Origin: Terriglobia bacterium
GTDB taxonomy: Bacteria; Acidobacteriota; Vicinamibacteria; Vicinamibacterales; CAVVIG01
NCBI GenBank assembly: GCA_020073005.1
Contig: JAIQFX010000047.1
Location: 4,080 to 68,079 of the forward strand
Direction of reading: 5' to 3'
Length of the DNA: 64,000 nucleotides
Part shown: positions 49,294-52,200 of the stretch, in pieces
Numbering within the stretch: position 1 is the first letter of the stretch
Layout of the letters: each line of letters begins with the position of its first letter
Position numbers and translations under genes: made by a program
Notes under the pieces: model-generated
The model's database searches: none
Seen by the model: only the letters and a program-made list of their open reading frames with translations
What the model was told of the DNA's origin: nothing

Positions 49294-52200
49294 CAGAAGG
49301 CGAAGGCGAGCGCGGGCGACGGCACGACGAACGTTTCGAGCAGCGAGATGGTCAACGCGGCCGCCACCATGAGGAACAACAGCCGCCAGTCGATCGCGCA
49401 GTAGAGAATGAGCCCGCCCGCCGGCGGGAAGACCAGCGCTTCGACGCCGGGTTCGATCGCGATGTGCACCGGCGGCAGGTACGAGAAGCCGCCCATCCAC
49501 GATCGGCCCTGCGGGTCGAACGTGTTCAGCACCGTGAGGTACCCGGCGAGCTGCACGGCGCCGAGCGACGCGCCGAGCACCGGCTTGATCTCGTACACCT
49601 CCTGCGTGCCGCGATCCGTGAGGTCCGGTCTCAGGCCGCCGCCCGGCACCGGCACTCCGAGGATCGTGTTGATCGTCGAGTTCGAGAGCCGGTCGCCGCC
49701 GCCCGCCAGGAAGTCGCGGCCGATCTCGTCGTGGATGTACCGGCCCCATGCCGGCGTCGACACGCAGAAGAACCGGCCGCTTGGATCGCTCTTGTTGACC
49801 GGATCGCAGCCGGCGTACAGGTACTTGTGCAGCGTGATCGGCGTGAGCGGGTTGCCGTCGCTCGGATCCTGCGCCGTGAACCGGCCGGTCGTCGGCTGAT
49901 AGTACCGGGCGCGCAGGTAGTACAGACCGAGCGTCGCGTCGTACTGCTGCCCGTTGAACAGGAACGGCGTGTCGGTCGGTCCCGTGTGGCTCAGGAGGTT
50001 TCCGAACGCGTCGTAGTCGTACGTGTCGCTGACCGCGCCGGCCAGGGTCGTCAGCAGGCGCGTCGATCCGCCGCCGTCGGCGTGATAGAAGAGCGTCTGG
50101 CCGCCGCGCGTCATGCTGATCAGATCGTTCGCGTAGACGTACGACGTCAGGAGCGTGCCCGCCGGCGTGTACTCGGCGAGGACCTGCGCGAGCGATCGGT
50201 TCGTGTCGACGAGATACCGGACCGTGGCGCCGGCGTCGCGCTTCTCGACGCGGTTGCCGTCGACGTCGTAGCTGTACTCCGTGACGGCGCCGCCGGGCGC
50301 CGTCATGCGAATCAGCCGGTTCTCGAAGTCGTACTCGTACTGCGTCGTGTTCCCGCTGTCAGTGCGCGTCAGCAGGTTGCCGTTCGCATCCCACGTGTCG
50401 CTGACGCCGTCTTCGCTGGTCAGCCGATCGGCGATGTCGTACGTGTAGTTCGTCGTCGACGGCGCGCCCGCGCCGATCGTCGACGTCTTCGTCACGCGAT
50501 TGCCGACGGCGTCGTAGACGAATGCGTTCGTGAACAGTGGATTGGACGAGAGGTCGTTCGCCTGTTCGTTCGTGAGACGGTAGAGCGCGTCGTAGGTGTA
50601 CTGACGCGGGCCGCCGGGCACCTCGGCGACGCTCGTCCGGTTGCCCGCGGGGCCGAGCGAGTACGCGTACGCCGCGAGCACGTTGCCGATCGGCCCGGCG
50701 TGCGAGAGCGCAGTGAGCCGGCTGTCCCCATCGTAGTTGTAGGTCGTCGTCGCGCCGCTCGGCAGCAGCACGCTCGTCCGGCTGCCGGACGCATCGTACG
50801 TGTACGACGTGTCGCGCCCGGCCGGATCGGTCACGGTCGTGAGACGGCCGGCCGTGTCGTACGCGTACGCGATCGTGCCCGCCAGGCTCGTGATGCCGAG
50901 CTCGTCGCCGTTGGCGTCGTACGAGTACGTGATCGGCTGGCCGTCCGGATAGATCAATGACGTGATCCGATCGCGCGCGTCGTACGCGTACATCGTCGTG
51001 CCGCGCGCGTCGGTCGCGCTCGCGCGCCGTCCGGCCGGCGTGTACGTGAAGCCGACGATCGACGAATCGGCGTACGTCTTCTTCGTCAGCTGACCGCGGA
51101 CGTCGCGCGTGTACTGCGTGTTGCGGCCGAGAGCGTCGGTGTGGCGCGTGAGCCGTCCGCCGGCGTCGTACGTGTACTGGTCGGTGGCGCCGTTCGGCAG
51201 CGTGCGCGACGTCATGCGACCGGCCGGATCGAACGTGAACGTCGACTGATGGCCGTTCGCATCGGTGACTCTGGTGCGGTTGCCGCCGCCGTCGTACGCG
51301 AACAGCGTGACTCCACCCAACGCGTCGGTCACTTTCACCAGACGGCCGTCCCCGTCGTAGACGTACGACGTCACTCGGCCACCCGCATCGGCTTCCGTGG
51401 TCTTGCGGCCGGCCGCGTCGTACGTGCTGTTCGAGCTCTCCCCGCCCGGCAATGTGGTCCGGACAGCCCTGTTGTCGGCGTCGTAGACGTACAGCGTCGT
51501 CCGCCCGTTGGGATCCGTTCGCGAGATCAGATTTCCGACGGCGTCGTACGCAGACGCCGTCGTGTGCCCGGCGGGATCGACCGCGGCCGTCTCTCGTCCG
51601 GCCGCATCGTAGGTCTTCGTGGTCGTGTTGCCGAGCCCGTCGGTGATCGCGACTCGACGGCTGGCCGCGTCGTACACGTACGCCATGGTCGCGCCGTCGG
51701 GGAACGTCGTCTGCGTCACCTTCTTGCGCGCGTCGTAGGCCAGGCGCGTGACGCGGCCCTGCTGATCGGTGGTCGTCAGGCGGTTGCCCTCCGCGTCGTA
51801 GGTGTACTGGATCGTCGTCGTGTCGGGCAGCGTCGTCTGGATGAGGCGGCCCGCGGAGTCGTAGGTGTGGCTCGTGGTGCTGCCGAGCGGATCGATTTCG
51901 GCGATCACCTGCCCGGCCGCGTCGTACTGCTTGCTCGTGACGCCGCCGGCTGGATCCGTGATCGAGATCAACCGATTGTCGGCGTCGTAGGCGAAGAGCG
52001 TGACGCCGCCGCGCGGATCGGTTTCGCTCGTCTTGTTGCCGTTGGCGTCATACGCGTCCGTCGTCGTCAGACCTGCCGGATCGGTCCGGCTGATCTGCCG
52101 CCCGAACGCGTCGTAGACGTAGTGGGTCACGCCACCGACGGGATCCGTCATCGACAACTCGTTGCCCGAAGCATCGTACGTGTGGCTCGTGACGCCGCCC

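Follow-up and report, generated by a model that had tools for sequence, protein, structure and literature searches.

Here, we present the C-terminal tip of a large RHS protein that is encoded on a 64,000-nucleotide stretch of DNA (hereafter the window) from contig JAIQFX010000047.1 of the Terriglobia bacterium assembly GCA_020073005.1. In our assessment, this region is very likely the toxic tip of a Sec-type RHS polymorphic toxin acting at the cell surface or outside the cell, namely a small, metal-dependent PD-(D/E)xK nuclease that forms a sister group of the family Tox-REase-9 and is paired with an immunity gene. The boundaries of the domain, its family membership, the conservation of its residues, the order of its predicted fold elements and the conserved pairing of toxin and immunity genes were all established directly. 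The tip had first been pointed out in an earlier reading of the DNA letters (hereafter the sequence-only reading), and the claims of that reading are taken up below together with the results that bear on them. The features of the window and of one further locus are collected in Table 1.

The RHS protein, the tip family and the downstream gene

Positions 49296-49772 are spanned by a sole long open reading frame (ORF), which lies at 49293..56663 on the minus strand and encodes 2456 residues, and the translation of its residues 2298-2456 agrees with both the position and the sequence that had been quoted for the tip. The protein begins with an N-terminal hydrophobic, signal-like segment, followed by six PKD-like domains, PASTA, two Big_2 domains, DUF6531, approximately 31 RHS repeats, the RHS core and, finally, the toxin tip. 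In the Pfam scan of the protein, the repeats were matched by RHS_repeat (PF05593, E 2.9e-157, 31 stretches) and also by TEN_YD-shell, and the remaining parts by K319L-like_PKD (E 6.2e-75, six copies), PASTA (6e-17), Big_2 (3.9e-12) and DUF6531 (5.8e-8); PAAR, VgrG, LXG and HINT domains were not found in the same scan. The core closes with DPVNKSDPSGR, and its junction to the tip, which reads GCDPVNKSDPSGR directly followed by FFCV..., aligns in the homologs as NPVNxxDPTG. After the core motif GCDPVNKSDPSGR, the translation continues for 159 residues (FFCVSTPAWGRYIHDEIGRDF...GLRPDLTDRGTQEVYEIKPVLGASLGAVQLAGYL...GGLILYCAIDWRLLFLMVAAALTISLLETFVVPSPALAFAF) up to the stop codon, which we take to be authentic because close homologs share the same C-terminal ending at the same position (...[IV]VPSPAFAFAF in P0001 and P0002, and ...PAMAFAF in P0004). 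The protein thus combines the features by which RHS polymorphic toxins are recognised, including many RHS/YD repeats, a core end of the PxxxxDPxG type before a variable tip and an immunity-type gene downstream. The tip is the end of such a toxin, and RHS nuclease toxins accompanied by an immunity gene are an already known kind of system.

Searching the 159-residue tip with HMMER against 1.84 billion representative proteins, with clusters defined at 50% identity, returned 257 clusters at E<=1e-3, 120 at E<=1e-10 and 3 at E<=1e-30, and judged from these sequence matches the tip is a member of a large, so far unnamed family. In 145 of the 152 proteins examined, no more than about 50 residues separate the end of the domain from the C-terminus of the carrier, and in nearly every match the number of residues remaining after the match tracks the number of query residues remaining. 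The domain thus sits at the very end of its carriers, where it comes with a tail of similar length. The three long carriers that were scanned with Pfam (2322-3710 residues) are all RHS proteins that carry PKD, Ig or CARDB arrays. The relatives with a named source, which are few, come from metagenome-assembled genomes (MAGs) of Acidobacteriota/Terriglobia and Actinobacteria. Within the 64-kb window, the hidden Markov model of the tip family gave one match only (49323-49769), and there was no second toxin or immunity cassette, leaving one copy of the toxin and one of the immunity gene.

The gene directly downstream encodes 240 residues, and its ATG shares one base with the TGA of the toxin gene (TGATG), an overlap that suggests translational coupling of the two. 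Homologs of this 240-residue protein are encoded directly downstream of family toxins in three of the four other loci (L001-L003, not L004), that is, in L001 (38% identity, E 9e-47), in L002 (37% identity, E 2e-48) and in L003, a Terriglobia MAG (E 1.7e-33). By this conserved downstream pairing, the 240-residue protein is a candidate immunity protein for the tip. Its family comprises 15 homologs of 223-266 residues including the protein of the window, all of them unnamed, with alignments that span 98-100% of the query in ten of the others. L005 and the 39-kb P0174 contig carry copies of the same type without a toxin, as is usual for immunity genes. The protein has no Pfam match better than E 0.13 and none to any Imm family, and neither PADLOC nor the PDB sequence search returned a match for it. 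AlphaFold2 models it with a mean predicted local distance difference test score (pLDDT) of 93.2 and a predicted template modelling score (pTM) of 0.89. In this model, the N-terminal half is helical, and there are also a beta-sheet and a long helix at the C-terminus; Foldseek found no neighbour of the model in the PDB (best E 0.62). As far as these searches reach, this immunity-type family is so far unannotated.

Additionally, one metagenomic protein of 490 residues (P0006) carries the toxin up to the GxIxY strand, after which some 30 unrelated residues replace the tail ahead of the immunity domain (258-487, E 3e-24). A frameshift or read-through has probably fused the two, and the protein would represent a further adjacency of toxin and immunity sequences. 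The GC content was also used to judge whether the module of tip and immunity gene had been acquired horizontally, and this idea was rejected, as there is no dip across the module (0.69-0.71).

Table 1 Features of the window (upper seven rows) and of the related locus L004 (last row).
Feature	Position	Strand	Details and basis
RHS polymorphic-toxin gene	49293..56663	-	2456 residues; ORF, translation, Pfam
C-terminal toxin tip, predicted PD-(D/E)xK fold, Tox-REase-9-related	49296..49772	-	residues 2298-2456 of the protein, 159 residues; family search, alignment, Pfam, AlphaFold2, Foldseek
Core beta-strand GLILYCAID	49386..49412	-	tip residues 121-129, the last being the first helix residue; AlphaFold2 and conservation
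True C-terminal tail	49296..49388	-	tip residues 129-159, helix 129-149 and low-confidence end VPSPALAFAF; AlphaFold2
Candidate immunity gene	48571..49293	-	240 residues; ATG overlaps toxin TGA, homologs downstream of family toxins
Ureide-permease/sugar-transporter-like membrane protein	47554-48543	-	PF07168, E 1.8e-20; directly downstream of the immunity gene
Patatin-like phospholipase and DUF3376 protein	44347-47544	+	1065 residues; patatin E 1.3e-10, DUF3376 E 1.8e-32
L004 toxin and following ORFs	4437-5789 of CAWEOJ010000001.1 (uncultured Acidobacteriota MAG)		toxin 51% identical to the tip; 205-residue ORF, RHS fragment

Predicted fold, conserved residues and the nearest named family

The fold of the tip was predicted with AlphaFold2 from an alignment of 25 sequences (A2), resulting in a model with a mean pLDDT of 93.3 and a pTM of 0.83. 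Counting from tip residue 1, which is residue 2298 of the protein, the model consists of helices at 7-22, 34-38, 65-85, 129-149 and 153-156 and of strands at 28-30, 51-53, 58-64, 103-107, 110-114 and 121-128. In terms of secondary structure, this predicted order is the alpha-beta-beta-beta-alpha-beta order of PD-(D/E)xK nucleases, with D50 directly preceding strand 2, E61 and K63 on strand 3 and Q74 on the helix that follows (65-85). The restriction-endonuclease fold proposed in the sequence-only reading is therefore borne out by the model, which places D50, E61 and K63 in their canonical positions, and also by the conservation of the motifs, and neither of the two outcomes that this reading had named as refuting it was obtained.

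Conservation was assessed by aligning 100 full-length domains, whose overall identity is only 30-60%, with MAFFT, in addition to which alignment A1 was used. The putative active site of the tip is made up of H14 (in GxxxH), D50 (in RPDL), E61-I-K63 (in YEIKP) and Q74. Across the 100 domains, the residues G10 (100%), H14 (90%), F21 (99%), P49 (99%), D50 (100%), L51 (99%), E61 (98%), I62 (100%) and K63 (97%) are conserved, as are Y78 (97%), W92 (98%) and G95 (98%) and, further towards the C-terminus, G120 (99%), I122 (99%) and Y124 (100%), and the proline of E[I]KP is found in 70%. The motif order that had drawn attention to the tip, a helix with H-D-E followed by PD, E-x-K and Q, is present in the translation and is not a matter of chance, given that it belongs to a family of 257 clusters with 120 at E<=1e-10, and the conservation of its residues among homologs lies at 90-100% except at Q74. 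Two details of the earlier description need to be amended. The first helix had been called acidic, but its conserved residue is His14 of GxxxH, whereas D15 and E16 reach only 23-24%; and the glutamine that had been called conserved does follow E-x-K, but is conserved in only 72% of the domains, compared with 90-100% for the other motif residues, with lysine in its place in 17%.

The same position varies in a sub-clade of six proteins (P0058, P0065, P0157, P0163-P0165), which have E-I-A in place of E-I-K and a lysine at the position of Q74. Migration of the active-site lysine is known in PD-(D/E)xK enzymes. We do not regard it as demonstrated in the E-I-A members, with which it is compatible only, as K74 also occurs in 17% of the E-I-K members.

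Among named families, the only Pfam match of the tip is Tox-REase-9 (PF15650), in which tip residues 45-83 fall onto profile positions 34-74 of 88, and P0001 matches the profile in the same region with 12.9 bits. In individual Pfam scans of 58 relatives, 17 matched Tox-REase-9 at E<=1 (best E 1.6e-8), and every other family appeared once only, as expected by chance. Four further relatives scored 14.6-16.1 bits, three of them across the PD...ExK region, and when the tip and nine other proteins were checked singly, six Tox-REase-9 matches were obtained, five of which lay over the PD...ExK region of the profile. No relative above the cutoff of the model was found among 13 further relatives scanned individually.

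The family Tox-REase-9 was described with the motifs GxxxH, E, D, ELKP and YxxE, with RHS carriers, with Imm54 as the partner and from taxa that include Actinobacteria, but not Acidobacteriota (Zhang et al. 2012, Biol Direct 7:18, PMC3482391). The two groups are alike in being C-terminal restriction-endonuclease-fold toxin domains on RHS polymorphic toxins and in their common motif series GxxxH ... D ... E[LI]KP, which in the tip family takes the form of GxxxH, PD and EIKP. They differ in extent, as the 88-position Pfam model stops short of the conserved W92, G95, PP and GxIxY strands and of the C-terminal helix of the tip, and in their known sources, which for the tip family are MAGs of both Acidobacteriota/Terriglobia and Actinobacteria. 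Based on these sequence comparisons, the most fitting description of the tip family is that of a sister group of Tox-REase-9 that has diverged and is mostly uncaptured by the Pfam model. The statement of the sequence-only reading that the tip could not be assigned to a named Tox-REase family accordingly needs qualification: there is no clean fit, with the tip lying below the cutoff, but a nearest named family does exist, matched by 17 of the 58 relatives.

The proposed resemblance to VRR-NUC did not hold, since the tip has no VRR-NUC match in Pfam at E<=1 and the families listed for the 58 relatives do not include it; the same scans gave no match at E<=1 to PoNe or Tox-REase-5. Scans of the tip with NCBIfam and PADLOC returned nothing, searching PDB sequences with either the tip or the family profile gave matches at chance level only (hexose oxidase, Kelch, stomatin), and no matching characterised domain was evident in the toxin survey of Nachmias et al. 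Of the better known toxins of this superfamily, PoNe and TseV (VRR-Nuc) are type VI secretion system (T6SS) DNase effectors with a PD-(D/E)xK fold (PMC6688995, PMC9635880), and the TseT-type effectors carry Tox-REase-5 (bioRxiv 10.1101/835710). Like the tip, these are antibacterial toxins of the PD-(D/E)xK superfamily with an adjacent cognate immunity gene, and their activity needs the D/ExK residues. They differ in being delivered by the T6SS, whereas the RHS protein of the window has no PAAR or VgrG in Pfam, and in having no sequence-family match to the tip.

Proposed mechanism, counter-evidence and competing explanations

Drawing on what is established for RHS toxins and PD-(D/E)xK enzymes, we infer a mechanism in which the tip would be held inside the RHS shell, be cut off by autoproteolysis after the DPxG motif of the core (here DPSGR) and be delivered to a neighbouring competitor bacterium. 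There, His14, Asp50, Glu61 and Lys63, together with Gln74, would bind Mg2+ or Mn2+ and hydrolyse phosphodiester bonds of nucleic acid in the target, and in the producer the 240-residue downstream protein would block the tip.

Several results weigh against this reading of the tip, either as regards its fold and function or as regards its kinship and partner. Foldseek searches with the tip model against the PDB and BFVD gave nothing at E<=1e-3. The top matches in the PDB were influenza PA endonucleases, at a weak E of 0.66 and a template modelling score (TM) of 0.30; the best BFVD match was unnamed (E 0.021), and the best named one, likewise weak, was Cas4 (E 0.033, prob 0.97, TM 0.44). Other weak matches in BFVD included endonuclease I, TnsA-N, HJR/MutH-type proteins, restriction endonucleases, PD-(D/E)XK proteins, bunyavirus L and PA, besides many unnamed or unrelated proteins. 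That the matches with nuclease names are PD-(D/E)xK enzymes is a consistent trend, made up of matches that are individually weak. When the family profile was aligned to PA-N with hhalign, PD and E came into register, but with a non-significant probability of 1.3%. With 14.0 bits (E 0.059), the tip lies well below the gathering cutoff of 27.3 bits for Tox-REase-9, and its family lacks YxxE, having Y78-x4-N instead (Y78 in 97%, then L-x-x-L-N). The partner differs as well, with the unannotated 240-residue family standing in place of Imm54, and this partner is not found throughout: in L004, where the toxin shares 51% identity with the tip, the next ORFs are an unrelated one of 205 residues and an orphan RHS C-terminal fragment. 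Since this toxin has a different downstream gene, the immunity partners are not uniform, and the arrangement suggests either alternative immunity partners or shuffling of cassettes. Finally, a full-text literature search for 'Tox-REase-9' led to the 2012 survey only, with no activity data for either the tip family or Tox-REase-9.

In the light of these points, the tip might be supposed to have decayed into a degenerate or inactive relic, or to be a binding module without enzymatic activity that has kept REase-like motifs, and its sub-threshold Pfam score would be in line with this. We find this hardly credible, as all putative catalytic residues are intact in the tip and are conserved at 90-100% over 100 homologs that share only 30-60% identity, as the intact and translationally coupled immunity gene has been kept, and as the end of the ORF coincides with the conserved C-terminus of the relatives.

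An active nuclease of the same fold could also have RNA (tRNA, rRNA or mRNA) as its substrate, which would make the tip a PD-(D/E)xK RNase toxin. This finds some support in the best, albeit weak, structural matches, PA and bunyavirus L, which like the tip have a His on the N-terminal helix, PD and then, 11 residues further on, E-x-(K). Influenza PA and bunyavirus L are cap-snatching endonucleases that cut RNA, and some PD-(D/E)xK toxins of contact-dependent inhibition (CDI) systems, such as CdiA-CT of Burkholderia pseudomallei, are tRNases. The similarity to PA and L is, however, non-significant (E 0.66, TM 0.30, hhalign prob 1.3%) and their biology is unrelated, so that it would point to a possible mechanistic resemblance and not to membership. 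Further, the sequence does not discriminate a DNA from an RNA substrate, and most characterised interbacterial toxins with this fold are DNases, for example PoNe (PMC6688995) and TseV/VRR-Nuc (PMC9635880). By analogy with these two, DNA appears to be the likelier substrate of the tip, and we consider RNA as the substrate unlikely.

The hydrophobic C-terminal tail, the neighbourhood and the wider family

The sequence-only reading had further described a hydrophobic tail of about 40 residues at the end of the tip and had suggested that it could serve as a membrane-insertion or translocation element. The hydrophobic C-terminus is real, but the 41-residue segment in question opens with GGLILYCAID, and its first ten or so residues are a near-invariant core strand of the domain (G120, I122, Y124; residues 121-128 modelled with pLDDT 97-98), leaving a true tail of only about 30 residues (129-159). 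The helix at 129-149 is predicted with pLDDT 93-97 up to residue 140 and 78 for residues 141-150, and the end of the tail (151-159) with 53. A tail after the strand is present in 97 of the 100 aligned homologs, which are all those in which the strand motif could be located, and it measures 28-49 residues with a median of 36.

Among these 97 homologs, the tail carries a median of 4 and up to 14 charges, compared with 3 in the tip studied here, 1 in P0001 and 3 in P0004. The best Kyte-Doolittle mean over 19 residues has a family median of 1.47, with 2.28 in the tip and 2.67 in both P0001 and P0004, and reaches at least 2.0 in only 14 of the 97 tails. On a Hessa-type insertion scale, the family median is +5.9 and the tip, P0001 and P0004 are at -0.37, -0.58 and +0.39, respectively, the sum being negative in only 4 of the 97. 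A segment of transmembrane grade is thus not conserved across the homologs and was found only within the window's own sub-clade (the window, P0001, P0002 and P0004). Because most homolog tails are charged and only 14 of 97 attain the Kyte-Doolittle mean of 2.0, the high hydrophobicity is a trait of this sub-clade and does not define the family.

According to the profile of the 100 domains, the tail helix is hydrophobic at 132/133, 136, 141, 144 and 148 and polar at 143 and 147, and the hydrophobic moment of helix 129-149 is similar to that of internal helix 2. We read the tail as the domain's own C-terminal helix, which would pack on the sheet, the packing being judged from pLDDT and pTM only. 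In the sub-clade, as we read the profile, the helix face that is usually polar has turned hydrophobic.

In this regard, the suggested membrane function fails as a property of the family, given the 14 of 97 tails at or above 2.0, the typical charge of about four and the predicted helix, and it retains a place only for the hydrophobic sub-clade, in which the last 30 or so residues might act as a membrane-insertion or translocation element, or as an anchor, beside their structural role. Such a role is suggested by the tail hydrophobicity there (2.28-2.67 against the median of 1.47) and by the insertion sums of -0.37, -0.58 and +0.39 against +5.9, by the AFAF ending common to the sub-clade, which extends to [IV]VPSPAxAFAF in the window, P0001 and P0002, and by the low confidence of the model over the last ten or so residues. 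It would also agree with the absence, in the Pfam scans, of marker domains of the T6SS or the type VII secretion system (T7SS) from the RHS protein and of secretion-system domains from ten neighbouring ORFs. Yet the same segment is charged in most homologs, with 14 charges in P0102 and 12 in P0148, and could not span a membrane there; residues 129-140 are modelled with pLDDT 93-97 within one compact domain (pTM 0.83); and hydrophobic residues on the helix surface could just as well be there to bind the immunity protein or to pack within the RHS shell. We therefore hold a membrane role in the sub-clade to be decidedly improbable beside the structural one. We give slightly less credence still to the more specific idea that remodelling has made the sub-clade helix nearly transmembrane-competent, so that it could help the released tip to insert into or cross the target membrane. 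If this were true, a Sec-exported RHS toxin without recognisable T6SS markers would bring along its own means of entry.

A separate feature of the C-terminus extends over the whole family. Of the 100 homologs, 66 end in F, I, L or Y (F in 30%, against a background of 4.3%, an enrichment of about 7-fold), and 72 have A, G or P as the residue before the last; in the window, the corresponding tip residues 157-159 are encoded at 49296-49304. Such an ending, a small residue and then F, I, L or Y, could serve throughout the family as a signal for recognition or docking.

Beyond the immunity gene, the permease-like gene is not followed by a further toxin or immunity cassette. The gene for the patatin/DUF3376 protein lies on the opposite strand beyond it, approximately 1 kb past the immunity gene. 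Ten neighbouring ORFs were scanned with Pfam, and six of them have no Pfam match at all; those with a match include this protein, a metallophosphoesterase and a nucleoside hydrolase.

Interbacterial weapons of this kind, in which an RHS protein carries an exchangeable nuclease tip and an immunity gene lies downstream, are well described, and for this reason the main finding is in itself an ordinary one. What the analysis contributes is the definition of a sizeable family (257 clusters at 50% identity) that is mostly missed by the current Pfam and NCBIfam models and is linked to Tox-REase-9, with a true domain that reaches about 70 residues past the 88-position Pfam model of the latter. Additionally, a so far unannotated family of 240-residue, immunity-type proteins has been identified, with a confident predicted structure that has no structural neighbour. 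The tip also illustrates that a greasy C-terminus on an RHS toxin need not mean a membrane function. If, however, the tail of the hydrophobic sub-clade does mediate passage through a membrane, this would bear on how RHS toxins that do not depend on the T6SS enter their target cells.

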